A stretch of 64,000 nt of DNA from Cyanidioschyzon merolae. Its lineage: Eukaryota. Position numbers and translations under genes: made by a program. Below the pieces are notes generated by a model, which saw nothing but the letters and a program-made list of their open reading frames with translations, ran no database searches and was not told where the DNA came from. Shown here piece after piece: positions 1-59,570 of the stretch (positions are counted from its first letter, which is position 1; each line of letters starts with the position of its first letter). The stretch lies in the NCBI GenBank assembly GCA_000091205.1, contig AP006500.2. The stretch is one strand, 5' to 3'.

Positions 1-1237
1 TGGCAGCCCAGCGCACGCCGGCGACAAAGCCGATGGAAACCACGGCATTGCACACGGTATGCGTTAGGAGCATACCCGATGAGAGTAGCGGTAAAACTGC
101 TGTAGTGAGCAATGCGTCTGTCGTTCCAAACAGTGCTGCGGCAACGAGTGAGCGTAGATGCCAGGCCAGGAGCCTCGCGACCGGCGCTCCATGAATCGCT
201 GCTGTTCGCAGCCATCGTTTTCCGTAGACAATCTCCAAAAACAGCGGAACGTAGACAGGGCCGACCACCGAAAGTAGAATCGCCAGGAGAATCGCACAAA
301 GCCGTGCGTCTTGCGCGAAACGATATGCCTCGACGAGCTGAGCTGGATCATTCTCGCTGGCGGTGCGGGCTGCCAGGACGCAGACGCTCTCCTCCAGCGG
401 AAAAAAGAAGAGCCGCAGCACCATCGACGCCAAATTTCCAGTTATCTTATAAGCTCCAATCTGCTCTGCTGTGAGGCGCGTGGAGAAAGCCAAAAACACG
501 TTCTCTGCATCGGACGCCAAAAACTTGAGCGCAGCATGGAACGACGCATGTAGCCATAGCCGTCGGCTGTCCGTATCCCGCCTCTGATCCGCTTGGCGTC
601 GTCTCTTTCGCGACCCGAGACGCCTCTGAAAACTTAGCCAGGAATGCGCCAGCACAACTACCCGGACGAAACTCTGTGCAAACCACCCCAATGCAGCGCC
701 CAGTGCATCATCGCCAGTCACATAGGCAATCGATACCGCAGATAGATGCTGCGCAAGCGCCGCAAGGCCGTCCGCTCGTGCACGCCCTGCGAGTGCCCCA
801 GCGTCGCCGTGCAACAAACACTGTACATGGAGCCATTCGCCTATGGATGCCTCTAACAGGGCTCCGGCTCCGACGAATGCGTACGCCATGTCCACGGGTC
901 CGGAGCTGATTTTCGCTGAAGCTCTCTTCCGAAACGCAGCATCATTGCCAACAAAGACGATGACACACCAGAAGATATTCATCCAAAACCAGAAGCGTCG
1001 TTGAGCGAACTCGGGGCGCTGCAACACGACGCGCCGTACTACCTCCCGGGCAGGCCAGAGTGCAACTGCGACCGACAAGCCCAGGTACACGTCCGAGAAC
1101 GCTATCGCAGCTGGCCCAAACCGGCGCGCTAAAAGCGTACGCAGTGCAAAGCTGATCACTTTGCTCAACAGGGACCAGAGGATCGTGGACCTCACGTTCG
1201 CGCTAGCCGTCTCTATGGCGACCTGGGAACCGCTCAT
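1..1237 (-). CDS. RFT1: RFT1-family oligosaccharide flippase homolog, N-terminal ~412 aa. Start ATG at 1237 (minus); the ORF runs off the window's 5' edge.
   Basis: My own minus-strand translation from 1237 down to 1 has no stop. It gives a multi-TM protein, MSGSQVAIETASANVRSTILWSLLSKVISFALRTLLARRFGP...GAYKITGNLASMVLRLFFFPLEESVCVLAARTASEND. The segment GxYxLxxNxGSLxxRLxFxPIEES matches the yeast Rft1 signature [34 protein letters not shown]. The ORF track omits it because it is truncated by the window edge. Confidence 0.65.
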   Translation of the reverse strand, partial: MSGSQVAIETASANVRSTILWSLLSKVISFALRTLLARRFGPAAIAFSDVYLGLSVAVALWPAREVVRRVVLQRPEFAQRRFWFWMNIFWCVIVFVGNDAAFRKRASAKISSGPVDMAYAFVGAGALLEASIGEWLHVQCLLHGDAGALAGRARADGLAALAQHLSAVSIAYVTGDDALGAALGWFAQSFVRVVVLAHSWLSFQRRLGSRKRRRQADQRRDTDSRRLWLHASFHAALKFLASDAENVFLAFSTRLTAEQIGAYKITGNLASMVLRLFFFPLEESVCVLAARTASENDPAQLVEAYRFAQDARLCAILLAILLSVVGPVYVPLFLEIVYGKRWLRTAAIHGAPVARLLAWHLRSLVAAALFGTTDALLTTAVLPLLSSGMLLTHTVCNAVVSIGFVAGVRWAA

Positions 1238-1863
1238 CCGGTCAGCGCTCGCGTGCCGTCTCGAGCGCTGCAACGGCTTCGGCTCTCCAGTCGTTCCCGC
1301 TTTTTCCATGGAGTACTCGCGGAAGTGGTCCTAGCGGCGACGGAAACAACGCGCGAACGATAATTCTTTCGTCTTGTCGCACTTGACGCAACAAGCTCGC
1401 TACAACCCCGCTCACGCAGTGCAAGAGACCGCTGCAGCCCGCTGCGGAACGACTCGAGAGGCTGCCAAGCCGGTGCAAAACGTCCGACCTCCAAAGCGTT
1501 CCGCCAGTGCGGAGCATCCGTTACGTTGGGTGCCTCTTCTACAGCGCAACCGGCAGAGAGACGGCTACGATGGAGGCTCCAGTGCACGTACCGCGCAACG
1601 AGGAGTGTTCCACTTTACAACGGCAGCAAGCTGCAGGATACAACACGAGAATCACAGACTGTTGCTTATGGAGCTTCAAGCGTACCGATTGTACTGGACG
1701 CTGGCCTGAATCCGCGGAGGTATTCGTGTGGGATCCGGATGCGCAACGTCGTGAATCGTTTTTCTGTGCAGACGTCCTTGCTGAGGAACAACTGGACGTA
1801 TCTACTTTCATACGTAGTGTGTCTGTATAGTCGGTACACCTCGCTCGCTGGCGTCGAAACGGT

Positions 1864-2268
1864 ATGCAGCAGTGCGAACTTGACCACGTTGCACTGAACG
1901 CCACAGACGTTGATCGACTCTTAAAGTTTTACGCTGGGCTTTTCGGCTGGTGCACTGAACGAGTGGACGAGTGGCGCGAGGGCAAGGTGCCTTTCCCGTC
2001 GCTGCGCGTGAACGCCCGCACGATCATTGACCTGTTCCCGTCTTCAGAATCAATGACGCTGAAACAGAGCTCCGACACGCATCTGAACCACTTTTGCATA
2101 GCTGTAGATCTTTCGACTTTCCGTGCTGTACAAAGCAAAGCGCAAGAACTGGGTGCTGAGGCGGCCGGCGGGCCGCGGCAACTCTGGGGAGCCCGTGGTA
2201 TGGCAGTTTCCCAGTATTACAAGGATCCCGAAGGCAACTTGTTCGAAGTTCGTTGCTATGAAGCATAA
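1864..2268 (+). CDS. VOC-superfamily protein (glyoxalase I / bleomycin-resistance fold), 134 aa
   Basis: True ATG at 1864. The N-terminus HVALNATDVDRLLKFYAGLFGW is typical of VOC beta-alpha-beta-beta-beta modules, and the C-terminal YYKDPEGNLFEV matches the DP(D/E)GNxxE motif. Confidence 0.55.
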   Translation: MQQCELDHVALNATDVDRLLKFYAGLFGWCTERVDEWREGKVPFPSLRVNARTIIDLFPSSESMTLKQSSDTHLNHFCIAVDLSTFRAVQSKAQELGAEAAGGPRQLWGARGMAVSQYYKDPEGNLFEVRCYEA

Positions 2269-3125
2269 GCTTTGGAAAGCGGGTTATGAAAGGTCACTCG
2301 CGCGGCGGCATACCGTTTCCGGGCGAGCGAAGCGCACGTCGGCAGCGCGCGACAGCCTAGCACGCTGCACAGCGCCGAGCGCGTGCCTGGAAGAGCGTCC
2401 ACTGCGCTCGGGCGTCGCTACCCAGCAATAACGTCGTAGAGGAGGCCAGCACGTGCTGCATAGTGACCGGAGCCCGTTTCCAGCAATTCTTTGCGCGAAT
2501 CGCAGCCCATGATTCATCGACTGGAGGTAGGCTTGCGTCAGCGGTCTTCCCGTTCGCAGGCGAAACTGCACTGAGCTGCTCGTTCACCTCGAACGGTCGC
2601 GTTTGGCAAGCACGGTACAATGCAGAATATTGAGGGGGACCGGTCCCGCATCCGTAAAGTGCTCACATCGATCAGCGTGCGGAACGATATTTACATCCAA
2701 TTTCACGCGATACATATCGACCACCATCATGGTTTGGCTTCTGATGCCTCCAGACCAAATCCCGTGTTCAGAGGATCGCGCTTCTTTCGACGCATGCTGG
2801 TGCACTCGCCCGAGGACAGCGGGAACAGCAAACGCATGTCGCCGCAGTGCATATACACTGGATGGACGACCACTCGCTTTCGAGCAGTCGACGCTCGCGA
2901 GTATTCAGCAAACGTCTTCATCATGACGATGTCGCAGTTCCTAGGAATACGCTGTGACACAGCGGCCGGTGTCGCGTTGGTGGCATCCCGCTCCCTTGTT
3001 GTCGCTCGTGCGTCCGCATGTGCACCGATGGACGCACCAGTGGGCGTCAACGCATTCGGGGTACCAACTGCGTAGCGACGTCACCGAAAACTTGCGAGTA
3101 GCCGAACCTTTGCTTGACGCATAGC

Positions 3126-3833
3126 CTAATATCGCTCAAAACGAGCACCAAGTAGACCAGCACCTGCCCATGGAGTCGGTACGACAACAATATCGTGCGT
3201 GGTAATCGAGCAGTCAGCTTCTGAAGTGCGCAAACCCCTCACAATCGAAAACACCACAGGTTGAGCGCGATGCTCGGACACCGTCACCGCAAGCGTCTCC
3301 CAGTCAGTACAGGAGGCGACGCGTACAACTAGGTCGCCTTCTTGGAGGCCTCCCTGGGCCGCTGGTGACCCAGCCTCTACCTGCACCACCTTTGCGAACG
3401 GTCTCAGGTTCGACTGACCCAGACTCGTCCCAGTCCATTCTGAGCGTTGTGCTGGCTGGTTGTCTCCGGGGCGGTGTTCCCGGCTCGAGGCAGTCCGCAC
3501 TGCTGGTGCGCTCTCAACAACTCGTGACACAGACGCGGTAGACCGTGCGGTTTGCGCGTGTGTTGGCCCGCTCGTCAGCACCTCCGGAAGCAGCCTTTCA
3601 ATTTCTCTCATTATCAGACGATAATCGGTTTGCAGGCACACGAGACGTTGACGATACTGGCGGATCTGGTACACATCGCAGTCCGAACGGGGGAAGCCGT
3701 CCTCGTCAACGAGTGGACCTCGCACCCCGGCAGGCGTGACTTCTAGACAGGATACCAAGCGTTCAATCTCACGCTCGATTTCTTCTTTCTGTAAAGCTAG
3801 CGCTCGTAGGCGCTGTACGCTGTCGGAGGTCAT
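3126..3833 (-). CDS. PSMD9: 26S proteasome regulatory-particle assembly chaperone PSMD9/Nas2 (coiled-coil + PDZ), 235 aa
   Basis: ATG confirmed (cat at 3831-3833). The N-terminus has a coiled coil (LRALALQKEEIEREIERL). The C-terminal PDZ segment PFAKVVQVEAGSPAAQGGLQEGDLVV aligns with human PSMD9 [25 protein letters not shown]. Confidence 0.7.
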   Translation of the reverse strand: MTSDSVQRLRALALQKEEIEREIERLVSCLEVTPAGVRGPLVDEDGFPRSDCDVYQIRQYRQRLVCLQTDYRLIMREIERLLPEVLTSGPTHAQTARSTASVSRVVESAPAVRTASSREHRPGDNQPAQRSEWTGTSLGQSNLRPFAKVVQVEAGSPAAQGGLQEGDLVVRVASCTDWETLAVTVSEHRAQPVVFSIVRGLRTSEADCSITTHDIVVVPTPWAGAGLLGARFERY

Positions 3834-4786
3834 TTTTTCGACGTCTCAGACAGGCGAACGACGGCGCGTAGCTCCAGGCGTTGCCCGGGAACCTTTACGG
3901 ACGAGGTCGTTTACGACGCTCAAAAGGTCCAAAGATCACAATCCGAAAAAAACATCGGAACTTGGTCTGAAAGAAATCTGAATAGAGCGCTGACGCTCTA
4001 TCCGACTTTTGATTAACAATAGCAACAACAACCGACCTCACGACATTGTCAAAGTCGAAACTGTCGAGCAACGGAACGCACGAAAACCGCACAACTCATC
4101 ACAGTACCTCATTCCGGCGTCTGTGCAGCATTCATAACAAGCATAGGGGATCAACGTATATTCGTACTCGATACACTACTATGCCTAGTTTGTTTACCAT
4201 CAGTAAACCTAACGAAACTCCTACTGAGTAGAGAGATGCATACCTCACCCGCACAAGCGTAACACCCTACGATGGCTACGCTTTCGACAGAAGCATCGCG
4301 AGGTATCTTGCCAGGCCCCAACATCCCCATGTATGTCAGGGCGGTACTGCGATAGGCTGTAGTCTCGGCACCAGGGAAATATCCTATCGCAGGGGATTAT
4401 TCCGTGTGAGTTTCCGATTTACGATACCTGATTTCCGCTGCAGAGCGATGCGTGCTGGTGAGAACACGCATGCGCCAATGCGGCATCGGACACGTGTCTC
4501 CTTTATGGATCGGTGTGAGCACTGCGGTCGGGCAGCGCTTCACGGGACCTGGCAGGCATGAGATACGACGCGCATGCCGCCGCCGTTGAAGAGAAACTTG
4601 ATCTTGATTTCCAGCGTATAGCCGAAATGTAAGAGTTGTATTTTCGTTAACTTCATAGCCAAGCACAGTTTTTCAGTTCATTTGTGTTTCACACCTCAAC
4701 TAAAAAATTCGATTGATATTTCGCAGTATATAACGGAGGCTTTCGAATAGCGTGCTTTTTCGAAAAAGACGCTAAAAAAGGAAAGT

Positions 4787-7112
4787 TATGGGAAAGCGAG
4801 TCGACGAGCCTTGAGGCCCAGTGTCGCCGGCTGCCTGAAAAACAAAAAACAGTGCCGAGTCAAGAAGAAAAGAAAAGAAAAAGAAGCAAAAGGGAGAGGC
4901 CCTACGTCGAAGGCTGCAATAAAGACGACAGTGCGACGAAATCGTAGTAAAACCCTGTCTTCGTAGACATATCAAGGGTCCGCACAAGGAAAAGTCGCAA
5001 GACGCCATCAGAATCCATATCGCGTCTTACTCCATGAGTATTATAAAGGCGTCGTTAGGACTAATGCATTTGGAGAAGGATACGTGTCGCAACGTGACGG
5101 ACATCAAAACAATTGACGTTCTGGAAGAATTTTTCAACAAGACCTTCACCCGCCACCTGATGCTTGGCACCGGGGAAACGTCGAGTGGAAGTGAGCGAGC
5201 GCATGCCCTCCACGAAAATCACGCCGAATACCGCTTCAGCGGTACTCGATACAGGGGCGACTTGTGTATTGACACCTGCGGGGCGGTCAGGTACTTCACG
5301 AACCTGAAGATCCATTTGACCGTGAAACTCGAATGCTTCACGATACGCGTCCTGTTTGCGCTGTACTCGGGCCTCTCGCGCACAGGAATATGGGTCATTA
5401 TCGATGGCATCACGAATGATCGCCAGCACGAACAGGAGACTGAGCTCGTCGAAGAGAAGATATCACACAGGAGAACGAATGAGGCTTCTGTCATCCGTGC
5501 GGCTATGCAAGAGCATCGTGCGGACTTGGTGCTCGCGCATCCAGCAGAAAAGGTATCAGATATGAAAAAAGATGAAGAAAGATGCTGTTCCCGAGCCCTG
5601 CGCTATTTTATGTTTTTGGGCCGGGATCTGGAACGCATGGCCGAAAAGCAGCTGAGTCGCGGAAAAATGAAGATTCGGAGAAATGGAAGGCTTTCCTAAT
5701 GGGTACGCGCTTCAACGTCGTTCCGATATGCAGCATCAACTCACATTTCGTGGCAGTCTGCTCCAGCGTCCCTCATGGCATCATGAGGGATATCTGTCAG
5801 GAGTTCGATGCAGGCAAGAAGGAGTTCATGGGCCAAAACCGGGAAACTCATTGGAAGAATATCTTCGATTTCAAACGTCTCAATACGGGCAAGAAAGGGT
5901 ATTCACGGGGACCATCGGAAGCGATGGGGCAGCCATGTGTGTCCACTACCGGCGGCTGAGGGCGGATCGACCTATCGTGCCTTCGGCTTCGCCCTCGCCG
6001 AAGCATGAAGAAAAGAAGGAGGCAGATCCTGCGACACAGGAGGTGCAGGATAACGAGCTTGTCGTTGGCTCGGCGAAGCATGAAGAAAACAACAAGGTAG
6101 ATCCTGCGACTCAGAAAGTGCAGGATAACGAGCTTGTCGTTGGCTCGGCGAAGCATGAAGAAAACAACAAGGCAGATCCTGCGACACAGGAGGTGCAGGA
6201 TAACGAGCTTGTCGTTGGCACCGACCCGGGGAACACAAATATCGTTACCATCGCTGTACCCAAGCGTGCGGAAGATGGTCCTGACGTTAGCTCACGTCAG
6301 AAAGACATGCTTCTTTTAAAGTTCTAAACATAGAAATACCATCGAGAATCGGGAATACTGAATACGAGGAAGAAAATCGAGACGTGGAATGCCGGAGTGC
6401 AAGAGCATCTGGAAGCTTTGAGCGAGCTGACGAGCCGAGGAGCGGACTTTCAGGCTTTTCGGAAATCCATGAAAGTTCGTGTTGCTCATTGGGAGGCGCT
6501 GTGGGAGGAGTATCCAAAGCCCCGGTGGGCTCGTCAGCGACTGATCTTGTGTTGTGGGAAATAGGGAGCGTTCGCCAACTTTTTCAATGCGTTCGGCGCC
6601 CTCAAAGAGGACGAGAGTCAGAGGCTCGCAATAGCGTATGGAGCAGGGCGCTGGATGACCCAAAAAGGGTGTACACAGCTCCATCGACAAGAGCGTACAA
6701 GAAGTGTGCACATCGTTTTGTCACAATACCTATAGATGAGTTCCTAACGTCCTATATGCACCATGAGCTGGGGTGCACACTTCCGAGCGTCGAGACGGAA
6801 AAGCGTCAGCGGGGCCCTGAGGATATAGCAAAGTACGGAGCGCTGACAGAGCAGCAAGTAGAAAGTAGGGCGAAAGTTCCTGGGCTACGTGCACTGGTGC
6901 GTACAACCAGTGATGGCAAGAAACGTATAGCGTTTGTCAATCGTGACTCGAACGCCGCTATCAATACCAGGAGATGTACGGTGATGGAGACGAGACCCCC
7001 GGAGTTGATACGATCCAACTTTACGGGGCAGCCTCTCAAGGTGGACTTACCCAGGGACAAGTTGGAACCAGTAGTAGGTGGCCGGTCCAAAAAGACCGGG
7101 AGGCGTCTGCAC
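4787..7112 (+). pseudogene. Fanzor/TnpB-like nuclease gene, copy A, inactivated by frameshifts and in-frame stops
   Basis: Homologous protein segments are split across ORFs 5034-5699, 5582-5959, 5683-6327 and the 5' part of 6384-7802. Stops at ...LLLKF*T*KYHRESGIL (6328-6340) and a frameshift near 6550 (LILCCGK*) are absent from copy B. The ATG at 4787 is followed by an early stop. Confidence 0.55.
5994..6210 (+). repeat. 66-bp (22-aa) tandem repeat, ~3.3 copies, inside the Fanzor-like ORF immediately N-terminal to the RuvC-I motif
   Basis: Units GAAGCATGAAGAAAACAACAAGG(C/T)AGATCCTGCGAC(A/T)CAG(G/A)A(G/A)GTGCAGGATAACGAGCTTGTCGTTGGCTCGGC start at 6004/6070/6136. The encoded unit KHEENNKADPATQEVQDNELVVGSA duplicates the strand (DNELVVG) leading into the catalytic TDPGNTN. 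Confidence 0.8.
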
Positions 7113-7202
7113 GTCAGCGTACCGACATCCACACTATCGGCGTCGTGTATATGCGTCGGTATACCTGTTTTGTCTGTGGTAGCTGAGAAGCATGGCCCGT
7201 GG

Positions 7203-7802
7203 ATGACTTTTTCGAGTCGTTTCTTTCGGCAGCTGATTCGCGGTGTCAGCTATGTGCCGGTCGTGTACGTTGTCCACGATCTTGTCGGTACGATTGTTCC
7301 CGTGAGGGGTGCGTCTATGCAACCAACCCTGAACCCAGGTGCGGCTGCAGGGGAGCTACCTCCCGGACAAGTTAGCGGCAGTCAGGATGTCGTGTTGGTT
7401 AGCCGGCTTCTCCGCGCTGTTTGGAACGTAAGGCGTGGGGATATCGTCGTTTTGCGGTCTCCCGACGCGGGACCGCAGAAGCGACTCGTGAAAAGGGTGG
7501 CCGCTCTAGAGGGGGATCGCGTTTACAACCACCGCACTGGGAAGTTTGTGGAGGTTCCACCTGGCCACTGCTGGCTCGTAGGTGACAACCGTACGGTGTC
7601 CCGTGACTCGGCTAGCCACTACGGGCCGGTTCCGCTGGGACTCCTCGAAGGACGCGCAGTGGCGGTTATCTGGCCACCACGTCGCTGGCAGGTGCTCGCG
7701 ACGTCACCAAGCACAGGTTTGTGGCTCGACACTCGGAACAGCGAGGGAGACCAACTGCCAGCCAAGAAGCAAGTGCTGGCCAAGTCGGCAACTACGAAGT
7801 GA
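7203..7802 (+). CDS. IMP2: Mitochondrial inner membrane protease subunit, IMP2-like (signal peptidase S26 family), 199 aa
   Basis: Internal ATG at 7203 of track ORF 6384-7802. The sequence RGASMQPTLNPG...RRGDIVVLRSP...KRLVKRVAALEGD...VPPGHCWLVGDNRTVSRDSASHYGPVPLGLLEGRAVAVIWPPRRWQ aligns along its length with human IMMP2L, including the catalytic Ser (SMQP) and Lys (KRV) boxes. Upstream of 7203 the same frame is the Fanzor-like 3' end, so the fusion is an artefact. Confidence 0.8.
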   Translation: MTFSSRFFRQLIRGVSYVPVVYVVHDLVGTIVPVRGASMQPTLNPGAAAGELPPGQVSGSQDVVLVSRLLRAVWNVRRGDIVVLRSPDAGPQKRLVKRVAALEGDRVYNHRTGKFVEVPPGHCWLVGDNRTVSRDSASHYGPVPLGLLEGRAVAVIWPPRRWQVLATSPSTGLWLDTRNSEGDQLPAKKQVLAKSATTK

Positions 7803-8880
7803 ATGGCTGAACGTCCGGATGGTGAGCAGAGAACGGCGCTATGGAGCAGCACCCATTTCAGAATACCATACAACGGATCCGCTCAGCGAACTCGGGCGTA
7901 GACGCTCAAGTCTGGACCGCTTCGCATTGTCATCTACAAGAGGTTTTGTGGGCGTTTTCTTCGAGTACGTCCTTTTCCTCGCTCTTGTCTCCGGTATTGT
8001 ATACGTCGAACGATGCATGTTTTCTTGTTGGGTTGCCAGTAACCGAGGCATGTCGACGGCAGCGGTAGAGTCGCGGTATCGCCTCTTCGGGCAGTTGTGG
8101 ACGCATTTCATGCCCAGGCAAAAGTTGCCATCGATGGGTCCTCTGTATTTGTATGCAACGTCGGTGCTCCGTTTGCAGCGGTGACAAACTTGGGCGTGTT
8201 CTGGCGTTCCCATGCGTCCCCAACGTACGTTCTCCCTCTCGGAAGGGCGCTTTGTGGTACCTGTACGCCAGCTCCATCACCCACCATATGGTATCGACGG
8301 GTGCAGAGGGCTTGCCCCGAGATCGTCCTCCGTTTCGGCGCCTGGTGCCGTAAACTGCGATGACGGGCTCGTTCTGGTCGATCGCCTCGGCGAGCACCAG
8401 ACGCGCTGCAAACACAAGTGCAAACGCCTCCTCTCGATGACTCAACATGCGCTGGCTTGCGCGCTCTTCGCTCCCTGAGTACGCTTTTGGCGAAACATGG
8501 CGATGATCGTGACGCGCATCGCGTTGCCGTACCTACTCGTGGGCATTGTGTGTCCACGTGCTTCACTTGTATGCGAGCGTGCAGTCACGGCTTCTGGGAC
8601 TCGCTGCTGCTTCCGTCGCTTGCTCGCTGGACGGACGTTTTTCGCGTTCATTATCTTCCGCTGATACGAAGAGTACAGGCGCGCTAGCAGAATGCACGGC
8701 TGCTGGTCCAAGTCAAGTATGCGGGCACAAAACCCGAGCAGCCATAGCTTCGCCTGTTGCCACCAGGGGTATTGGGTCTCTGTTTGGGTAAAAGAGGAGC
8801 GCAGGTGCAGGGGTCCGCACTGCATGCTCCAGGCTGGTGCAGAGTGCATTGGAGAGCATCCTCGCGAGGCGATGCATTTG

Positions 8881-9100
8881 TACGGGTCGTTGCTCGTCTG
8901 CGTAGTAGCTCGTCTGCATAGTAGCTCGTCTGGGCTGTACGGGTCGTTGCTGGTCTGCGCAGTAGCTCGTCTGGGCTGTATAGGTCATTGCTCCTCTTCG
9001 TAGTAGCTCGTCTGGGCTGTACGGGTCGTTGCTCGTCTGCATAGTAGCTCGTCTGGGCTGTTCGGGTCGTTGCTGGTCTGCGCAGTAGCTCGTCTGGGCA
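8881..9100. repeat. 41-bp minisatellite, ~5.5 copies
   Basis: Unit AGTAGCTCGTCTGGGCTGTACGGGTCGTTGCT(C/G)GTCTGC(A/G)(T/C). The period is not a multiple of 3, so three units equal one 41-aa peptide repeat, and two minus-strand frames (track ORFs 8684-9544 and 8713-9276) both stay open across it. Confidence 0.8.
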
Positions 9101-10094
9101 GGGGTGCGTTTCAGCTCTGACGGTGTCATGAATCGTATGGGAGGTTCGCTGTTGTCCTTGTTGATAATGGCGATATTGGCCGATACGCTTACGCAGTCGG
9201 TCTCGACGAAAGACGCAACCTCTCCTGGTCGTATTGCGAAGCTGGTATTCCCGCAGTTTTTCCTTCCCGCTTGCATCTATTGCTTGCGAGGCATGGTGTT
9301 GCCACTGCCGAGCGGTGTTTCCTCGATGACCGTGAAGAAAAGCGGATTCGACTTGAGCACCGAATCGATTATTTGACGTGACAAATCCAGTCGACTTTCG
9401 GAACGGGCCTGCGAACAAGGCATCAAGGGGTGACGTCGAGGCTGTCTGCTCGTCAACCCAACAGAGCGCATTGCTGCGTCCACGAGTTGCCCTGAATCGG
9501 AAAGATCGAAAACTTGAAGCATGTGAGATTCGGGTATGCCACACATAAGGAGAGAAGAAGCGAAGCAGCTTGCAAATATGAGTTGGATATCGATTTCTGT
9601 TTTTTTACGGACCCGTGTTCGGGGGTATCGCGAATCATTCTGACTCCGATGAAAGAACGCATTCCAGCGGTAAATCGTTCAAGGTAACGCTCCGAAAACA
9701 CGACCAAGAATCCTAAAACTACGCGTGAACCCGTATGCCCATAGTGCTGCACTTGGAATCTTGATGCCGCAGATCCAGAGAAAAACGTTTGGATGTATCG
9801 CAAGCTAGGAAGAGCGCAAGCAGCTCAAAACTCCATGATAACGTAATACGGTTCTAGAGACCTGCTCTGGGGCCGCGCTCCCATCCGCAGAGGCAGCGCA
9901 CGAAAGCAAAAGCACAGGACGACTGCACCAGACACCAGCGAGACCGCGGCTCACGACCCGCTCGACAGACACCTGCGTTTGCTCCTTCATCGCACCGCTG
10001 CTTGCACTGCCTCAGACTCGTTCATAACCCAGCATACAAAAGCGTAGAGCGAGATTGTATCCCCCTTCACCGGCTGATCTGACAGGTGTCTTGC

Positions 10095-22135: not shown

Positions 22136-22565
22136 CACCGTGATTCCCAAAAGACGCGTACAGATGCTCTTGATCCATCGACTCTGAATCCACCGTGTCG
22201 CAGTTCAACGCTTTCCGGGATATCGAGCAGTATCGTATACGCCTTTATGGAGGCGTGTAGGATCTTTTATAGGATGCTAGAATCACCGTGATTCCCAAAG
22301 ACGCGTACAGATGCTCTTGATCCATCGACTCTGAATCCACCGTGTCGCAGTTCAACGCTTTCCGGGATATCGAGCAGTATCGTATACGCCTTTATGGAGG
22401 CGTGTAGGATCTTTTATAGGATGCTAGAATCACCGTGATTCCCAAAGACGCGTACAGATGCTCTTGATCCATCGACTCTGAATCCACCGTGTCGCAGTTC
22501 AACGCTTTCCGGGATATCGAGCAGTATCGTATACGCCTTTATGGAGGCGTGTAGGATCTTCTAAA
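22136..22565. repeat. ~147-bp tandem repeat, ~2.9 copies
   Basis: CACCGTGATTCCCAAAGACGCGTACAGATGCTCTTGATCCATCGACTCTGAATCCACCGTGTCGCAGTTCAACGCTTTCCGGGATATCGAGCAGTATCGTATACGCCTTTATGGAGGCGTGTAGGATCTTTTATAGGATGCTAGAAT recurs starting at 22136, 22284 and 22431 with 1-2 differences. It is intergenic, about 460 bp upstream of threonine synthase. Confidence 0.85.
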
Positions 22566-22836: not shown

Positions 22837-24420
<1,584 letters not shown>

Positions 24421-25651
24421 GGGTGCGCTTCGCTCCAACGAATACAATTCACTGGACGAAATCCTTTTGCTTTCCGCATAAACGCTTGTTCTTGGACGCG
24501 GGACGCATAAATAGATGTAGCTTTGGATGCAATGAACGCGGCGTTCACGCTGCGGTACCGATGGAAACAACACGCAAAGTGAAGCGGGGACTATGCACCC
24601 GCCGTCGAGGGCGCTTCGCAGAATCCGCTGACCATTACCCTCCGCAGAGGTATGCTTCGCAACACGCGCGAGCGTCTCCAAGCAAAGCGCTTCCCGTCAC
24701 GCACCCTGTACCTTGAGGCATATTGGCGGATGTTGCGCACCACGTCACGTGCATGCCGTCGTGCGGCTCGCCGGATTCACACATCTAGGCGCGAATGTCA
24801 AAACAGACGCCTACTGTAGGATAGCGATACTGTGCTACTGAGATGCTGTGTCCGCATCGCTACTTCAGACGCTATGGCGGACGCTGACGGCACACTCGGT
24901 GCACGGTGGACCGTCATCGATGACCATGGCCCCCGAAAGCAAGCACGGGCATTGGCAGCTGAATCACAGGGGTAGGGCGTGGCATGATGAACGCTTTCCC
25001 GGATGCCGATGTACATTGCGCAGTCGGGAATCCCCAGTCAGTGCCGATATCTTGTTGATCCAACACCAATGCATTCCACGCGCCGGTGTTGCAAATTGTC
25101 AGGTATCGAACTTTTCAGAGGATAGATGGACACGGTCTGTGTTGTCGTGCATATTTTCGGTAGTATCGAATCATGGAAGATCATAAATGTTTACGAATTG
25201 TAGAGCTAAATTGTTCCCGGTGCATATATGCAACGCCGCAGCCGGTCAAGGTACCCAAACTGCACCACACCAGTGCCTCTGTCGTGGCAAGAATCCAGCG
25301 CCGCCTCTCCTGAACACTGATTTTTTTCAACGCAAGTCTTTCGCGTTTTAGCACAATGCACGCACAGACTACGAAACGGTTCCATCTAGATTTCGCTCGA
25401 CACAGAGCAGGTGTACACGACCAGGGCTTTAGGCTTTACCGAGTGTTGATCGATGTGCTCAATGCTCAGTCAAGAAAGGCCATGTGCGCATTGTTCATGG
25501 TGCAGAAAGACATACGACGGCGACGCTTCTCGCATTCGATTGCCTAGCCGTCCAAGGCTCCGGCAGCTTACCGGACACCAAGGATTGCATCCAGCTCTCT
25601 TTCTTCTTGTACCATTCTCAGCGGGCACCCATGCTCGTGATGCGAGTACGC

Positions 25652-25717
25652 CGTCGAGACCGCATCGAGTGCGGGAATCGAGTCAGAACGATTCCCGCAC
25701 TCGATGCACGCTCTCGA
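25652..25717. repeat. Perfect 19-bp inverted repeat with 8-nt spacer, in an extended imperfect palindrome
   Basis: Left arm GCATCGAGTGCGGGAATCG (25661-25679), spacer AGTCAGAA, right arm CGATTCCCGCACTCGATGC (25688-25706). Outer arms GTCGAGA (25652-25658) and TCTCGAC (25711-25717) extend it. Both strands therefore encode the same peptide (IECGNR...IPALDA). Confidence 0.8.
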
Positions 25718-26876
25718 CCATGGAACAGGCTGGCAGCCGTTGTGCACAAAAACACGTGCAGCGCCATAGACTGCTGCCGAACGACGCGACTTATCGGTCA
25801 TTTGCTTTTCCAATGCATTGATCAAGTGGTCGGATGCACGTTCCTTGTCACCGTGCAGAAAAAAAGAAATCCACGGCGACTCCAGGTGCGGTCCCGTGTG
25901 CTCGTGCCCGAAGTCATCCGCGTGATCCATTCGTGCGCCCAACGACGCTCTGAATGAAGCGTTCTGTGTATCATTCTCTGCTCGATACGGTGCACAGCGC
26001 GTCCAGCTGGGTCCCGGGGCTTACCTTGCCGAGTGGCATGGATGCGGTGGGTGCAGTGCGTATTCCTTTTTTCCATGGGATTCGCACACACGTGAGGTAC
26101 ACCTTGGGACGTAACCTTGCCCTTTCCTATGTATCTAGCTACAGTTCGTTACGTACCTTTTCGTCACCTTGTCTTCCGCAAGCACGCACGCGGACCGAAG
26201 GGCGCGGTGTCGCTCCCTCCCGCTCACCAGCGGAGAAGCAGCAGAGCAGTTCGGTGCGCGGTGAGCCTGGGAACGAATTGTCGAAGAATGGTGACGCGGA
26301 TGCGAACGACTCGTCTATAGATCTGTGAGCATAAGAGTGGCGTTCGAAAACAGACAAAGCGTCATAGACTGGATCGAGTCAGATCGGAGGCCATGCCACA
26401 AAGCGAAGCGCGATGTTGATTACTGCTGCATGCTCCATGACCGCTTTTGAGTGGTAGAAATCGAAGTCATCTAACAGCAGGGCAGACCAATTCGGGAAGT
26501 AGAAGCTACAGAGTGATTTTACGAAGGATGAAGTGTTGAGCGACACTGTCCATTTGGCGATTTGTAGGCGACGAACGACAGAATCGACACTGGGACTGAT
26601 CGTGCCCTCGTATTCGCTTGGTTCTTCTTTATGGAGACCGGGTTGCCGCACTTTGCGAACCCACATCCAGATGTACTACATTTCCTCAATAGTGTAATCG
26701 AGTGAGACTGACTTTGGTCCTTCCTCTTGAAACCTTTCGCGTTTCGGTTCGAAATCGATCGTGTTTTGCCGAATGCACGACGATATCTCGGCGAAGCGTT
26801 CTCCTTGCCTTGTCCAAGCGTGTCTCCTCATCATCGTACGTAATTACGGTACAGAAACTTCATGACCTGTCGCTTC

Positions 26877-30620: not shown

Positions 30621-32059
30621 GTCGCAGCTCACGTTTCTGAGAAACCGGTACAACCTTTGAGGCGACGGGAAACTATTCTCGAGTCCAAAGTGCGAACAGA
30701 GGTCGTCGACTCGCCGAACAGATCGTGTTGCAGAAAAAGGTCACCGTGCGCCGAGAACAAACGCCTTTCAAAAGAGAAACGTTGTCGTCGCCAGCGGTGT
30801 AATGGCGGCGAACAGCGTCCTAGACAAAACGTCTCCATCTGACGTGCAGACGCCTCCCAGTTTTTTTCCATTGACAAAGCGTTTACTTAGGCCAGCGTTC
30901 TCCAATTGTACGCTTTTTCTTCTCTTACTTTTTTTGTGTTATTTTCAGTACCCTGTAAAGGATCCATCAATCCCCTGCTCCCAAGTTACATTACCTATAC
31001 GTCTTCTCGGATATTCTGGTCGTTTCATACGTCCTATCGTGTGTGCCTAGTGCCTGCCTTTCCGTATCCGCCTTTGCACCTTAACCGCTGGAGTAGATAC
31101 TTCATAGAGTTAGACCAGCTTTTCTATATCACAGAGGGCATCGGCTCGAGGCGTGGTTCACCCGACGTAGAATCGGATCTCGTCTTCAGTTTGTGCTTGG
31201 ACAGTCTGCGGATGCAGGCTTGCCTTCGCTGCACGACACGCTGGAGACACTTGGCTGTTAGGATATATCCTGGGAGCCGCCCCTCCACTTCGTGATCATG
31301 CATCGAATGCGTTGTTGTCGGTTGGCTATGCGGGTTTGTGCTTGACACCCACCACAGTGGGTAAGCGCAGAAAGCGCAATGTGCCCGTGTGCGTATCCGA
31401 TTCGCTGGACCTTCCGACTAGAAGTTCGATTTAGATGCACCCTCCACGGGGTGTGTGAACGCACACGCCACCATTGCCTCCTGCATTCCAGTCGTTCATT
31501 GCGTATCTGCCACAGCGCTAGCATAGAATCAAAAGTACATTAGTCAAGGTCGATTCGAATGCGACCTTTATCTTGCCGGACGCGTGAAGCCACCCTAAAC
31601 CACAGGGGAAACTCTACGAACCACCCTTTCAGCGGCTTCGTATCCGCTCCCCAAATACATAGGCGGGCAAGTCGCTTATTCCAGCTTCGACGGCGAACAT
31701 ACTGCCAGCCGTCTTCCAAAGTATCCGCCGAGATTGTTTCCAAAGTTTAGGTAGGTACCCAAGGTAGAAGGTAAAACGGAGCCCGAGTTCGAGGATTGAA
31801 CCAGGATTTGCGCCGGAGCCTGCAGCGTTGATTCGGGAGGGGCGGATAACTGCTCAGAATTTTCGTCAGCTTTTTCTGCTGCTGCTGCCTCCGCCCCTCC
31901 GTTCGTTGCGGTCAAGGTCCCTGGCGTGGGCTTCCTTCGCCGTCGCCCAAGCACCCCGCGTTCGCCCACTTTCAGAGCTTCTCCGGAAAAACTAGACCTC
32001 TTATGCGGGCGTGGTGTGTTGGGCTTAAAGATAGTTGTTCTTTGATGAATAGTTTGTGA

Positions 32060-34758
32060 CTAGTTTGCATCGCGCTCAGTGAGCGCACCTCGGAGATCAG
32101 GCAGGCATGAGACACGACGCACATGCCGTTGTTGAAGGGGAACGTGATCCTGATCTCTAGCATGTAGATCTATTGTAAACGTTGTATTTTCGTTCAGGCC
32201 ATAGCAACGTACAGTCTTTCAGTTCGATTGTGCTTCAAACCTCAAACAAGTCTAGTCAAGTGTTTTTTCGCAGTATATAACAGAAGGGTTCAAAGAGCGT
32301 TCTTTCTCAAAAAACAAAAAAAGGAAAGCTATGAAAAAGCAAGTGCACGATCCTGGAGGCCCAGTGTCGCCGGCTGCCAGAAAAAAACAAAAAACAGTGT
32401 CGAGTCCAGAAGAAAAGGAAGAGAAGAAGGACCGAAAGGGGGATGCCCTACGTCGAAGGCGGCAAGAAAGACGACTGTACGACGAGATGGTGGTGAAAGC
32501 CTTCCTTCTTGGACATATCAAGGATCCCTACAGGGAAAAGTTGCGAGACGCTATCGAAATACGTGTCGACTCGTACTCCAAGAGTATTGTCAAGGCGTTG
32601 TCAGGACTGATGCATTTGGCGAGGGAGATGTATCGCGACGTGACGCACATGCAAACGGTCGAGATTCCAGACGATATCTTCGACAAGACGTTTATTCGCC
32701 ACCTGATGCTTGGTACAGGGGAGATGCGGAGGGAAAATGAGCAGTACATGCCGTACACGAAAACTTCGCGCAATTCCGCTTCGAAGGTAATCGATACAGC
32801 GGTGACGGAAATATTGACACATACGGAGTGAAAAAGTACATCACGAATCTGAAGAACCATCTGATCGTGAACCTCGAACGTTTCATGATACGCGCCGTAT
32901 TTGGACTCTACCCGGGCATCTCTCGCTATGGGAAATGGGCGATTATCAACGGCATCACGAACGATCGCAAGCATGAAGATGAGGTCGAATTTGTTGACCA
33001 GAAGGCGTCAAAAGAGAGCACGAATGAAGCTGCTGTGATCCGTGCGGTTGGACAAGAGCATCGTGTGGTGCTCGGGCTGGTGCATCCAGCAGAAAAGGTA
33101 TAAGAGTTGAAAAAAGATAAGGAAAGATACGATTGTCTCCTCCTACGGTATTTCGTGTTTTTGGACCGTGAACTCGATCGCAAAGCGGAGATGAAGCTGA
33201 GTGAAGAGACAAATGGAGAGTGGGAGAGACGGAAGAATTTCCTAATGGGGAAGTGCTTCAACGTCGTTCCGTCATGCAATGCCAAGTCACATTTTGTTAC
33301 TATCGACTCCAGAATCCCTCACGGCATCATGAAGGAGATCAGTCCGGAGTTCAATGTTAACAGGGAGGAATTCTCCGGTGAAAACCGGATGACGTACTGG
33401 AAGAACATCTTCGATTTCAAACGCCTGAGAGTGAGCAAGCAAAAAGTGTTCACTGGGATAATCGAAACCGATGGAGTAGCCTTGTGTGTACACTATCGGC
33501 GGTTGAAGACAGATCAGCCAGTCCCTCCCTCGGCTGCGCCCATGACGAAGGATGAAGAAAACAAAGAGGCGGGTCCTGCAATGCAAGAGGTGGAGGACAA
33601 CGACTTTGTCGTTGGCGCGGCGGAGCATGAAGAAAACAAAGAGGAGAATCCTACGACTCAGTAGGTAGAGAATAACGACCTTGTCGTTGACGTAACGAAG
33701 GATGAAGATGAGAAGGAAGCGGACCCTGTGATGCAGGAGCTGAGGGGGAACGACCTCATCGTTGACGCGGCGAAGCATGAAGAAAACAAGAAGGCGGGCT
33801 CTGAGAAGCAGAAAGTGCAGGATAACGACTTTGCCGTTGGCGCTGACCCCGGAAACACAAATATCATAAGCATCGCAGCACCCACGCGCGCGGAAAATGG
33901 TACTCACGGTAACTTACGTCAGAAAGACATGCGTCTATTGAGGTTCTCGAGAGCGATATACAATCGATAATCGGGAATCATGAATGCGAGGAAGAAAATT
34001 GAGGCATGGAATGCAGGAATGGAGGATCACCTGGAAGCTATGAGCGAGGTGACGAGCTGCGGAGCGGACTTTGAAGCTTTTCGGAAATTCATGGAAGTTC
34101 ATAGTACCCATTGAGATGCGCTGTGGGAGGAGTATACAAAGCCCCGGTGGGCTCGTCTGCGTATGAATCTATACGGTGGGAGGCAGCGCGCATTCGCGAA
34201 TTTTTTCAATCAGTTGAGCTCCCTAAAGGAGGACGAGAGTCAGAGGCTCGTAGTAGCGTACGGAGCAGGGCGCTTGAAGACCCAAAAAAGGGGCTACGCC
34301 AGCTCCAACGACGAGAACGTACAAGGAGTGTGCACGGCGTTTTGTTACGATACCTGTAGATGAGTTTCGAGCATCCTATGCACACCGTGAACTGGGGTGT
34401 ACACTCCAGAGAGCGGAGATGGAAAAGTGCCAGAGGAGCCCTGAGGATATAAAAAAGTACGGACCGCTGACGGAGGAGCAAATGGAAAGGAGGGCAAAAG
34501 TGCGAGGGCAACTCGCGTTGGTGAGTACAACCCCCAAGCGGCAAGAAACGTATGGAGTTTGTGAACCGAGAATTTAACGCTGCCACCAATATCAGACGAT
34601 GTGCAGTGCTGGAGGAAAGACCTTCAAAGAAGACAAGAGTGAACTTTGTTGGACAACCTATCAAAGTCGAACTATATAAGAAAAAGTTGGAAGCAGTAGC
34701 AGGTAGCCTGTCCAAAAAGACCGGCAGGCGTCTACACTCCAGTTGGAGACTTCTTGTC
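32060..34758 (+). mobile_element. Copy B of the Fanzor/TnpB-like element (~2.7 kb), degenerate
   Basis: It is co-linear with copy A from the left-end hairpins (GCGCTCAGTGAGCGC at 32066-32080; GGCATGAGACACGACGCACATGCC at 32107-32130) through the ORF to the 3' terminus CCTGTCCAAAAAGACCGGCAGGCGTCT (~34723-34750). It ends 76 bp upstream of the KTI12 ATG. Confidence 0.6.
32331..34758 (+). pseudogene. Fanzor/TnpB-like nuclease gene, copy B (~809 codons) with a frameshift and 3 or more in-frame stops
   Basis: ATG at 32331. There is a basic NLS-like N-terminus (ARKKQKTVSSPEEKEEKKDRKGDALRRRRQERR). Lesions are a frameshift near 32828, stops at 33104 (TAA; TCA in copy A), 33662 (TAG) and 33968, and later shifts. 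The RuvC-I-like motif [16 protein letters not shown] is at ~33830-33880 and the RuvC-III-like motif EFVNREFNAATNIRR at 34555-34600. Confidence 0.55.
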
Positions 34759-34833
34759 TAGGCCGCGTTCGCCACTACTGTACACCGCTGGCGACAACGT
34801 TTTTCTTTTGAAAGGCGTTTGTTGTTGACGGTG

Positions 34834-36021: not shown

Positions 36022-38040
36022 AAACGACGCTGTCTACTACTGCTTAAGATGACAGCTACAGTTGTTAGCCAGCGGCGGCCGCAGGCTAAGAACGCGTCCT
36101 GGATGACAAAGGCATGAATAGCGCCAGAATCCATTGCCCAGGTCTAGGACGGAGGCAGTAGCGAGTCGCTCTGTTCGGGAGCACGCGCCTGCTCAGCGTC
36201 AGATCGCTGACGACAAGCGATGGACGCATACTATGACGACTCTGAACCTGCGCTCTCGTCGATGAGCCGGTGTGCTGCGGAGCGTCATTCGAGCAAGGAA
36301 CGGCGTCAGACAGGCGAGCATCATCAGTGCCTGAGGCGCGGCCATCGCTCGCAAACGAGTGCACTGTCGACAGCACTTGACGTTCCCGCACTAGGCATGC
36401 GAGTGCATACTATCGATCGAAAGCGGACACGTGCCCCAAGCATTAGACAGTGGACCCATTTTCGGCAAATGAACAGGGCAGTAATCTGTGTCAGTAATCA
36501 TAAGCAGATGGTATGGGAGGAGATATGGATGTAGGCGAAGTGGCGTCGCTTGGTACGCTCAGGGAAGCTTTCTTGCTAAGCGCATAGCACCTTGTTGCTG
36601 CGAAACGACACGTCTGCACAAAAGTCCCTGTATGTCGATTTTCTGCTGTTCGCAAGTCATGCGCTGTGGAAGCGCTGCCGACTCCTATGCATAGTGCTGA
36701 CACAGCTCTGCTGCACTACTCGCCGAGCGAGTGACGTGCCTGGGTTTACCTTGTGAAATCGTAGGTTCCGTTTCCTCGAACAAAAGCCTAGCACTCGATA
36801 CCGCTGTGCTTGCATGCGACTACGGCAAATCGTCTGTCTCAGGTACCGACACCCGTCGCGCAAGCGGAGACCCTCTTGGTCGACTAAATGATCCTGCAGC
36901 CCCCAAAACGACAACAACAGAACATGCGTTGCAGCGCAGACAAGACCGAGTCTAGGCGGATTCGCATTTGCTCTGTGCTACAAGCAGAAGACCCCTCCGA
37001 ATTCGAAATTTCGCTGCAGTTGCATTTCGGACGAGTCGGTTGAGCGGGTCTAATCAAAGCACCGAAAATAACTCGTGCGACATGGCCATGAGCGCAGCCT
37101 CAAGCTGGAGCGGTAGCCGTTCCTGGAACACCCATGTGGGCGACAACGATCAGCTTCCCTGGAGTCGGGTATACGCGCTTTCCCGACGGGAGAAGATTCG
37201 TATCTTGCCTCATCTATACTGTCTTGACATGCCGCCACACGGGCCTACTTCTTACCGGACCAATCGAGCGAATATGTGCAACCAAACGAATGCCATCGCA
37301 CAGCGAGACCACCAAGCAATCCATCACTTGAGAGGATCAGCTTGTCATGTTCTGGACGGCAGCCCGCAGCCATAACTTGCGTACTGCGACGACGGAAGCG
37401 ACGTGCTTGGTGGCACACGCTGCGTCCTATGGTGCCGCTCTCGGTTCCAAACAGACGCCGAGATATACCATCACGAAGCCCTGTTGCAGGACGTTCACAG
37501 GATGAGGCGGGTACAGCCTGCGCTTCCCACTCAGTCCAAGTCGGGGAACGATCCAGCGCATCTACAAGCCCAGCGAGACGACGTGTCGCAGCCGTCCGAG
37601 CCACTTTTTCTATATCCTCGGCAGGCTCATGCCTGGTGTTGGTACCGCTAAGCGAACCAACAGCTGACGTACTCGAGGAGCGTGTGCGCACACCAGGTCC
37701 AGTGCGGCTCGCTGCATCCGCAGATGACGATCCGAGCGCTTGCGTTCCAGAAAGTGTTCGTGGACGCGACGCTGACGCCGTCACCAACCGGACATCGTCG
37801 AGGACTTTTCGAATCTCTGACAAGTCCGTAGCATCGGACAGCGCGCTGCGGCGTGTGCGTCTCTATGGCGTTTCCGGCGGTGATATCACCGGCGTCGCCA
37901 GCCCTGCAGCCGGTGACGACTCCACATCCGAACTCGGGCACGCTGCCGCTGGTGCACTAGAGTTCCGACACCCGCCTGCGTGCGGCTGGGATAACGGGCA
38001 TATTCGACTTGTTAGTCCGCTCACGCGTTTTCAGTGCTGC

Positions 38041-38417
38041 TGCTGATCACTACTGATCTCTAATGACTGCTGTTGATTGCTACTGATCATTACTGATCAT
38101 TACTGATTGCTACTGATTGCTACTGATTGCTACTGATCGCTACTGATCGCTGCTGATTGCTGCTGATTGCTACTGATCATTACTGATTGCTACTGATCGC
38201 TACTGATTGCTACTGATCTCTACTGATTGCTACTGATTGCTACTGATCGCTACTGATTGCTACTGATCGCTACTGATCGCTGCTGATCTCTACTGATTGC
38301 TACTGGTCTCTACTGATTGCTACTGATCGCTACTGATTGCTACTGATTGCTACTGATTGCTACTGATCATTACTGATTGCTACTGATCATTACTGATCTC
38401 TACTGATCGCTGCTGAT
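38041..38417. repeat. 10-bp satellite (CTACTGAT[T/C][G/A]), ~37 copies
   Basis: Near-perfect head-to-tail 10-mers with variants TACTGATTGC, TACTGATCGC, TACTGATCAT and TGCTGATTGC. It lies ~190 bp upstream of the glycosyltransferase gene. Confidence 0.9.
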
Positions 38418-59259: not shown

Positions 59260-59570
59260 GCGCTTCGGCGATTGAAAAGCACGGAGAGCTGACAGAGCAC
59301 CAAACGGCACTGAGGGCAAGAGTTCGAGGAATCCTTGCAATGATGAGTACCACCAGCATCAGTAATCGCATGGAATTCGTAAACCGAGGCTTCAACGCTG
59401 CTATCCATATCAGACGATGTACGTTGTTGAAGACGAGACCCGGGGATTTGAGGCGAACCAACTTCCTGGGGCAGCCTCTGATGCTCGAAGTGTGCCTAAA
59501 GAAACTGATTCCGATCGCATGCGGCAGATCAAAAAGACTGGGCGGCGCCCGTCAGTTGGTATGAATTCAG
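59260..59570 (+). mobile_element. Copy D: 5'-truncated 3' fragment of the Fanzor/TnpB-like element
   Basis: Track ORF 59175-59564 encodes ...AIEKHGELTEHQTALRARVRGILAMMSTTSISNRMEFVNRGFNAAIHIRRCTLLKTRPGDLRRTNFLGQPL..., co-linear with the C-terminus of copies A and B and including the RuvC-III-like NAAIHI motif. It ends with the hairpin CAGATCAAAAAGACTGGGCGGCG. Confidence 0.5.

Follow-up and report, generated by a model that had tools for sequence, protein, structure and literature searches.

The 64,000-nucleotide stretch of Cyanidioschyzon merolae contig AP006500.2 analysed here (the window) holds several related insertions with the remains of a long protein gene, which raises the question of what these insertions are, how they came to be repeated and whether any of them still works. 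From the bare sequence, the original prediction described four copies (A to D) of a decayed, Fanzor-like element in a eukaryotic nuclear genome. Our results indicate that A to D, together with at least two further relics, are almost certainly degenerate copies of CMe-1A, an element whose sole gene encodes the Fanzor1 protein CMe-1. The observation is a correct rediscovery; exactly this family, the CMe-1 Fanzor1 in CMe-1A, was published in 2013 for the same genome. The nuclear context was borne out by six flanking open reading frames (ORFs) that are residue-for-residue identical to annotated proteins of the C. merolae 10D nuclear chromosome (BAM82540, 82545, 82546, 82547, 82551, and 82553), all on one 1.25-Mb record.

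Fanzors were defined by Bao & Jurka (2013, Mob DNA 4:12; PMC3627910), who listed one Fanzor1 family for C. merolae, namely the 734-aa protein CMe-1 and its element CMe-1A, with a consensus of 3169 bp that is also found in Repbase. According to PMC3627910, CMe-1A has ~150 copies, each ~80% identical to the consensus and some still intact; it has no terminal inverted repeats (TIRs), its target-site duplications (TSDs) are undetermined and its class is unknown. The 5′ 635 bp of the consensus correspond to a separate non-autonomous element, TE-N2_CMe, and the paper remarks on long-lasting coding capacity. The consensus DNA and the CMe-1 protein were taken from the supplements of that paper. Copies A and B are 82–88% identical to the consensus over 2.4–2.5 kb, while CMe-1 shares 66% identity with the repaired protein of A and 75–83% with that of B. 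The proposal of a Fanzor-like lineage that has decayed in the window is thus supported, since the copies align with the 2013 consensus and all coding copies are broken; none of the findings named in advance as able to overturn it was borne out.

The RuvC-like motifs quoted in the original prediction are present, as VVGTDPGNTNIVTIA and IAFVNRDSNAAINTRR in A and, together with a RuvC-I-like motif, as MEFVNREFNAATNIRR in B. Single sequences were not sufficient to place the protein. The repaired A and B proteins gave no Pfam match at E <= 10, including OrfB_IS605 and OrfB_Zn_ribbon (Cas12f1-like TNB), in a Pfam set that did not include PF26935 (DUF8286), and neither these two sequences nor a five-sequence profile matched anything in the PDB. 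A word-indexed database search yielded 24 relatives, all but one from metagenomes of the Joint Genome Institute (JGI), among them a near-intact 752-aa protein (P0001, 75% identical to B) and two distant ones. A protein search with a small alignment returned close relatives only; of 1.84 billion cluster representatives searched with a profile, 2791 were related at E <= 1e-3. From an alignment of 40 diverse relatives with a mean column identity of 20%, we built a family profile that matched Fanzor1 structures in the PDB, namely PpFz1 of Parasitella (5e-16), GtFz1 of Guillardia (7e-16), and SpuFz1 of Spizellomyces (2e-10). The matches extend over all three RuvC segments as well as the N-terminal half; nothing else was significant, with IscB faint below. 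Profile similarity to Fanzor therefore holds with the 40-sequence profile (E 5e-16 to 2e-10), where single sequences failed.

The conservation pattern fits the same family. Only 11 columns are invariant in the 40-relative alignment, and they include the Asp of DPG (D484), the Gly of AYG (G623), the Glu of DEF (E656, 33 residues downstream of that Gly), and the Asp of RD-NAA (D725), each present in 40 of 40 relatives. In Fanzors, the catalytic site is rearranged, with Gly or Pro at the canonical RuvC-II Glu position and an alternative Glu downstream (PMC10530073). A check of the expected Asp/Glu/Asp positions bore the prediction out: all three residues are invariant among the relatives, with the minor correction that the Glu is the alternative one in VDEFRTS and the canonical RuvC-II position is a Gly. 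Judged from the alignment, D484, E656, and D725 make up the predicted rearranged Fanzor RuvC triad.

Structure prediction, which had been proposed as a check together with a fold search, agreed. An AlphaFold2 model of P0001 on the 40-relative alignment reached a predicted local distance difference test score (pLDDT) of 80 and a predicted template-modelling score (pTM) of 0.78, and its sole long disordered stretch is a repeat insert at residues 375–470 (pLDDT < 50). The modelled fold has a long helical REC-like N-terminal half, a WED domain, and a split RuvC, as in solved Fanzor1. In a Foldseek search of the PDB, the top seven matches were all Fanzor1 structures (SpuFz, PpFz, and GtFz; E 1.3e-17 to 2.9e-14), the best being SpuFz at 1.3e-17 with a template-modelling (TM) score of 0.71 normalised to the target, whereas Cas12 proteins appeared only at E >= 6e-3. 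The window protein family is Fanzor1, the eukaryotic homologue of TnpB. As for its Pfam labels, 4 of the 40 relatives match Cas12f1-like TNB (PF07282), whereas for P0001 the match, which lies at the RuvC-III motif, is no better than 0.23. Some of the relatives P0001–P0020 carry a weak precomputed label of PF26935 (DUF8286); Pfam therefore seems to hold part of the Fanzor1 lineage as a domain of unknown function.

Nucleotide similarity among the four insertions, as first reported, is well above chance. In a self-comparison of the window, A (~4534–7117) and B (~32082–34737), both on the plus strand, align over ~2.6 kb with 75–77% identity (E = 0), and C and D resemble the 3′ part of A and B at both the nucleotide and protein levels. 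All four copies exist, but they are not the whole family in the window, as a solo 3′ end and a fifth relic (copy E) lie beyond them. The coordinates given earlier did not hold, because the element ends fall outside them; B, for example, extends to 34833 rather than 34758. The revised positions are collected in the table below. For comparison, 71 related loci (designated by L numbers) were fetched from metagenome contigs, none of which shares host genes with the window.

Table. Positions of CMe-1A copies, their parts and adjoining repeats in the window (consensus, CMe-1A consensus unless otherwise stated; TRF, Tandem Repeats Finder)
Feature	Position	Strand	Description
Copy A, 5′ non-coding module	4089–4515 (core from 4524)	+	Itself truncated on the 5′ side; common to ~13 other subfamily copies
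Copy A, core	4524–7117	+	Consensus 649–3091, 82–85% identity; Fanzor1 pseudogene from 4788
Copy A, 75-bp (25-aa) tandem unit	5994–6219	+	TRF period 75, 3.0 copies, 92% matches; directly before the RuvC-I strand
Copy E, old heavily decayed relic	about 25598–25960	-	tblastn 33% to CMe-1 residues 508–624, E = 5e-15
Solo CMe-1A 3′ end	30745–30867	-	30762–30867 = consensus 3063–3169, 85% identity; plus hairpin
TE-N2_CMe-like module at the B 5′ junction	30861–31424	+	30981–31166 = consensus 91–271
Second repeat 'Y' (unnamed, 640 bp) at the B 5′ junction	31426–32067	+	Recurs beside CMe-1A cores elsewhere
Copy B, core	32067–34833	+	Consensus 660 to end plus ~16 nt; Fanzor1 pseudogene 32331–34761
Copy B, alignment to consensus	32083–34817	+	Positions 660–3169, 85–88% identity
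Copy B, 75-bp tandem unit, diverged	33546–33843	+	TRF period 75, 4.0 copies, 69% matches
Copy B, non-coding 3′ tail	34762–34833	+	Terminal hairpin 34783–34833; candidate 3′ end of the omega/fRNA scaffold
Copy C, internally deleted relic	46364–46534 and 46659–46900	+	Consensus 802–969 (76%) and C-terminal coding part
Copy D, C-terminal fragment	59209–59543	+	CMe-1 residues 613–723; 59% protein identity
Full-length TE-N2_CMe copy	59588–60221	-	Consensus 1–633, 82% identity; adjoins D, upstream of TrmO (ATG 60359)

The copies differ in what they have kept. Copy A has lost everything from consensus position 3091 on, including the non-coding tail and the terminal hairpin; its 5′ module is 75% identical to that of locus L035, and the upstream regions were also compared by multiple alignment. 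Copy B is cut on its 5′ side at a junction common to many copies, with other repeats abutting. In the second piece of C, 46721–46899 corresponds to consensus 2903–3082 at 67% identity; copy C shows 41–44% identity by tblastn, and its 3′ end, as read from the sequence, was lost at ~consensus 3085. In D, 59209–59479 corresponds to consensus 2737–3010 at 74% identity, with a cut read near consensus 3098. The solo 3′ end is inverted relative to B and 82% identical to the 3′ end of B, with a hairpin of z = -2.4. Copy E retains a region of the form AYGA...YSHHEHGC and has lost the alternative Glu (DAV instead of DEF).

Whether any of these copies could still work was judged by mapping stops and frameshifts through three-frame translation, after which the proteins were repaired. 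The long frame is broken by three frameshifts and six stops in A and by three frameshifts and four stops in B, giving repaired proteins of 785 and 811 aa that are 60% identical to each other. The predicted ~800-aa protein is therefore right in size but exists only after such repair, and the lesions lie at different positions in the two copies, consistent with the independent decay proposed for them. The consensus positions 2120–2196 match copy A three times and are single in the consensus; A and B are longer than the 734-aa consensus protein because this 75-bp unit before RuvC-I is repeated three times in A and four times in B. Copy A retains the Asp, Glu, and Asp, and copy B has a Glu in place of the RuvC-III Asp (NREFNAA; D725E). 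All window copies are dead and none can work, because stops and frameshifts occur in all coding copies, A, C, and D are without the 3′ RNA region, and B carries the RuvC-III Asp to Glu change. The ratio of nonsynonymous to synonymous substitution rates (dN/dS) against the consensus is 0.48 for A, 0.39 for B, and 0.31–0.47 for seven metagenome copies; much of the divergence therefore arose while the protein was under selection. Past purifying selection on the CMe-1 protein agrees with what Bao & Jurka (2013) noted about how long coding capacity had lasted.

The 3′ end is sharply bounded. Among ~40 distinct copies, the 3′ ends can be aligned up to a sharp point and are divergent beyond it, with a conserved non-coding tail of ~75 nt. 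The last ~50 nt of the element form a long hairpin that occurs in two sequence versions, with compensatory changes between copies (substitutions and one 3-nt indel). In B, the 3′ arm of this hairpin passes the published consensus end (34817) and runs up to 34833, so the published CMe-1A consensus appears to be ~16 nt short at its 3′ end. The RNA fold of the B hairpin reaches -27.5 kcal/mol (z = -4.85, with 0 of 200 shuffles as good), and other copies go down to z = -5.8, the best ones lying between -4.4 and -5.8. Since Fanzor guide RNAs are encoded at the element 3′ end, where the hairpin sits, this structure is a candidate terminus of that scaffold. A possible helix formed by the final codons (CGTCT/AGACG) was considered separately and dropped, as it shows no compensatory changes, and no Rfam family matched in the window.

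Several points weigh against reading CMe-1A as a Fanzor1–guide RNA system of the familiar kind. The sense strand folds more stably than its complement in 30 of 34 copies (mean -21.0 vs -14.9 kcal/mol, with ~4 G–U pairs per hairpin), which points to a sense-strand RNA, but these copies are mutually related and not independent, and the p-value is inflated. RNAalifold over the whole 3′ module gave almost nothing in the way of a consensus structure, and a long-range helix that would pair the ORF end with the tail (CAGTAGTGG/CCACTACTG) has no compensatory changes; the guide RNA here is itself predicted. On the protein side, CMe-1 lacks the canonical four-Cys zinc finger that would lie between RuvC-II and RuvC-III and has HH-x3-C-x11-C instead, and no nuclease activity has been reported for the CMe-1 protein. 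As the zinc finger is replaced, RNA or DNA handling may differ from that of solved Fanzors. Fanzor1 and TnpB carry a CxxC...CxxC zinc finger after DE(F/Y)xTS; the region in question, CMe-1 residues ~655–680 (window 6750–6830 and 34370–34450), reads YTHHELGC-x11-C, with two His and two Cys, and the distant relative P0023 has no Cys there.

A mechanism for an intact CMe-1 can be sketched from characterised Fanzor1 and TnpB systems. The N-terminus is strongly basic as read from the sequence (KKQK..., RRRRQERR; KKQKTVSSPEEKEEKKDRKGDALRRRRQERR in B), and the protein may enter the nucleus by means of it; an N-terminal nuclear localisation signal (NLS) occurs in ~60% of Fanzors, so it is not strictly defining. 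By analogy, CMe-1 would bind a guide RNA from the 3′ end of its own element, comprising the ORF end and the ~75-nt tail that closes in the long hairpin, and the guide would be the sequence just outside the right end of the element. Matching DNA beside a short adjacent motif would then be cleaved by the single RuvC site (DPGN Asp, relocated VDEFRTS Glu, and NRD-NAA Asp). The cutting of element-free sites might lead to retention and spread of the element via homologous repair, as in TnpB systems.

The 5′ side of CMe-1A is heterogeneous. Many copies share a 5′ junction at consensus ~648–690, upstream of which the sequences differ: directly oriented TE-N2 (the arrangement of the consensus), inverted TE-N2, repeat 'Y' (found in B), or a third module of ~870 bp (found in A). 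The TE-N2_CMe-like module and repeat 'Y' recur beside CMe-1A cores at other loci, in either orientation and with 84–91% identity. A hairpin at the left junction of B (32067) was not better than shuffles (z between -1.2 and +0.7). The element had been called single-ORF and IS1341-like, with no TnpA or recombinase. No second ORF with a family match, and hence no Y1 (TnpA) or serine recombinase partner, lies in or beside the elements, so this part stands, but there is no IS1341-like defined left end and the 5′ modules on the one core vary. A search for an empty site for B in related strains was negative, all contigs either carrying the insertion or breaking inside it.

Side by side with these junctions, we noted how the repeats are placed. 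The TE-N2_CMe-like module and 'Y' lie directly upstream of cores at consensus ~650 in the window and at loci L003, L007, L008, L013, L019, L022, L036, L046, and L047; this recurrence of repeats at the same junction hints that the 5′ edge of the core is favoured for insertion or recombination. At L043, L044, L056, L058, and L060 (and L052 and L055), partial CMe-1A copies are duplicated head-to-head in inverted orientation and joined inside the 75-bp repeat region (consensus ~2093–2140), and pairs of full CMe-1A copies joined from consensus 1 to consensus 660 also occur in the same set of loci. One apparent pair of TIRs, a 117-nt inverted repeat (30749–30867/34714–34830) that would delimit a 4.1-kb element, was rejected because its left arm is the solo 3′ end of another copy and the DNA between consists of two independent repeats that occur in either orientation elsewhere.

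The truncations on the 3′ side are clustered as well. A, C, and D break within consensus ~3085–3098 and the solo piece begins at 3063, so this stretch looks like a breakpoint hot spot. Taking the window breakpoints (7117, 46900, 59543, and 30867) together with those at L057, L064, and L069, truncated copies break at consensus ~3063–3107 (CTGGGAGGCGTCTGCACGTCAGTTGGAGACGTTTTGTC). The motif ACGTTTTGTC in this stretch recurs in the reverse complement of the TE-N2 5′ end, and a CTGGSAGGCR motif is also found at the 5′ junction.

The alternative that survives best accepts the Fanzor1 identity but takes the element as a passenger without autonomy. It would be copied by another enzyme through recognition of its 3′ hairpin (candidates are a reverse transcriptase of the long interspersed nuclear element (LINE) type and an HUH/rolling-circle enzyme), with no role for the Fanzor in the increase in copy number. 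In its favour, there is no transposase, TIR or detectable TSD, the core is attached at one and the same position to several different 5′ modules, many copies truncated on the 5′ side retain the 3′ end (some as solo pieces of ~110 bp), and short GGT-like repeats come after the conserved 3′ stem-loop in some cases. Other observations speak against it. Neither the window nor the fetched loci showed a partner enzyme; a poly-A or regular microsatellite tail is absent, as most of the 'GGT' sequence belongs to the 3′ arm of the hairpin; truncations can come from deletion in a compact genome; and in A, C, and D it is the 3′ end that has gone, not the 5′ end. A dN/dS below 1 also argues that the protein mattered to the success of the element. 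We regard such passenger copying as unlikely.

At the other extreme, the Fanzor1–RNA complex itself might drive copying by nuclease-triggered homologous repair in an alga proficient in recombination, rather than merely assisting a separate transposase, which would make CMe-1A a Fanzor-only mobile element. The observations that bear on this are the ~150 copies without transposase, TIRs or TSDs, the purifying selection, and the conserved 3′ sense-strand hairpin. We consider it highly improbable, and much less likely than copying by a trans-acting enzyme that recognises the 3′ hairpin.

An origin of the copies as paralogues within some ordinary family of host genes, rather than as mobile insertions, can practically be discounted. 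The lack of definable TIRs and TSDs, the heterogeneous 5′ ends, and a dN/dS below 1 with its sign of past selection on the protein would fit such a family. In contrast, all window copies are intergenic pseudogenes absent from the reference annotation, and more than 70 related copies lie at loci with unrelated neighbours in environmental Cyanidiales contigs, with no shared flanks, contradicting the paralogue alternative that had been named as able to overturn the original prediction. Copies are often truncated, inverted, or nested, those with different flanks still have the same sharp, conserved 3′ end, and the 2013 description is that of an interspersed repeat with ~150 copies. A prokaryotic TnpB of the IS200/IS605 type, arriving by contamination, in organellar DNA or by recent horizontal transfer, is equally remote: it would account for the RuvC fold common to TnpB and Fanzor, the 4 of 40 relatives that match Cas12f1-like TNB, and a right-end hairpin without TIRs as in IS200/IS605, but the flanks are exactly matching C. 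merolae nuclear genes, the best sequence and structure matches are Fanzor1 with TnpB and Cas12f only at E >= 1e-2, the 734-aa protein has the long helical N-terminal half of Fanzor1, there is no TnpA and no significant left-end hairpin, and a search of a phage collection gave no match.

The degenerate CMe-1A copies bear on neighbouring host genes and on their annotation. The hairpin of B ends (34833) one base before the annotated ATG (34834) of the KTI12-like gene BAM82546.1, so the whole 5′ untranslated region (UTR) and promoter of KTI12 must lie inside the transposon. The solo 3′ end and the TE-N2 copy (59588–60221) lie ~125–140 bp upstream of the start codons of SURF4 and TrmO, respectively, the distance to SURF4 being ~125 bp. 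No stop codon separates the C-terminal remnant of A from Imp2, a host gene (BAM82540.1) annotated to start at 7203; the result is a 472-aa chimeric ORF at window 6384–7802 on the plus strand. Many 433-aa proteins that were called from metagenomes and labelled 'inner membrane protease subunit 2' fall into the same 90% cluster; these probably represent the same artefactual fusion of copy A and Imp2, and would show that insertion A is present in environmental strains. The window copies are missing from the reference annotation, and automated gene calls run the end of copy A into Imp2. As a discovery, the finding carries little weight: the paper defining Fanzors already catalogued the C. merolae Fanzor1, and the biochemistry of these proteins has been established since 2023. 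C. merolae is a compact and genetically tractable alga, and the family, though old, still shows selection on its protein; it could serve to ask what a Fanzor does for an element without a transposase.

The window contains other repeats as well. A 147-bp tandem repeat (22136–22560, 2.9 copies, 99% identical) lies upstream of a gene for a pyridoxal phosphate (PLP)-dependent enzyme (22993–24420), a 10-bp minisatellite (GCTACTGATC, 38039–38417, ~38 copies) just upstream of the glycosyltransferase gene BAM82547.1 (38609), and a 41-bp tandem repeat (8908–9099, 4.7 copies) inside a 286-aa minus-strand ORF (8684–9544). Window 9364–9767 matches L001 16549–16952 in inverted orientation over 405 bp (66% identical), near a CMe-1A copy of an unrelated metagenome contig; this stretch may represent a further repeat or part of a conserved gene.

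Compared with known systems, CMe-1 shares the RuvC fold and the D...NAA-x-N signature of RuvC-III with TnpB of IS200/IS605 (e.g., ISDra2) and with Cas12f. At the element level, the likeness to IS200/IS605 extends to a guide RNA at the right end (a candidate in CMe-1A), a right-end hairpin, and the absence of TIRs and TSDs. CMe-1 is about twice as long as TnpB or Cas12f and has a Gly in place of the canonical RuvC-II Glu, and CMe-1A differs from IS200/IS605 in having no TnpA, no significant left-end hairpin, and a eukaryotic nuclear host. The relation to solved Fanzor1 (SpuFz1 8GKH and 9CEU–9CEZ, GtFz1 9CER, PpFz1 9CF0/1) is closer, with homology over the helical N-terminal half and the split RuvC (TM 0.5–0.7), the same Asp, relocated Glu, and Asp, and, by analogy, a guide RNA expected from the element 3′ end; sequence identity is just 13–15%. 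CMe-1 is without the CxxC...CxxC zinc finger that SpuFz has after DE(Y/F)xTS, and unlike solved Fanzor1 it has a disordered repeat insert before RuvC-I and resides in an element without TIRs or TSDs. Between the CMe-1A of Bao & Jurka (2013) and the window copies, nothing essential differs: genome and family are the same, and the copy divergence (~80%), the lack of TIRs, and the relation to TE-N2_CMe all fit. The published description is refined in that the conserved 3′ end runs ~16 nt past the consensus and completes a long hairpin, in that the 25-aa unit, single in the consensus, has expanded in A and B, and in that a second 5′ module that is not TE-N2 is joined to the core in A and ~13 other copies. 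Together with the annotation notes, the extended 3′ hairpin, the repeat expansion, and the extra 5′ module are the only increments over prior knowledge.

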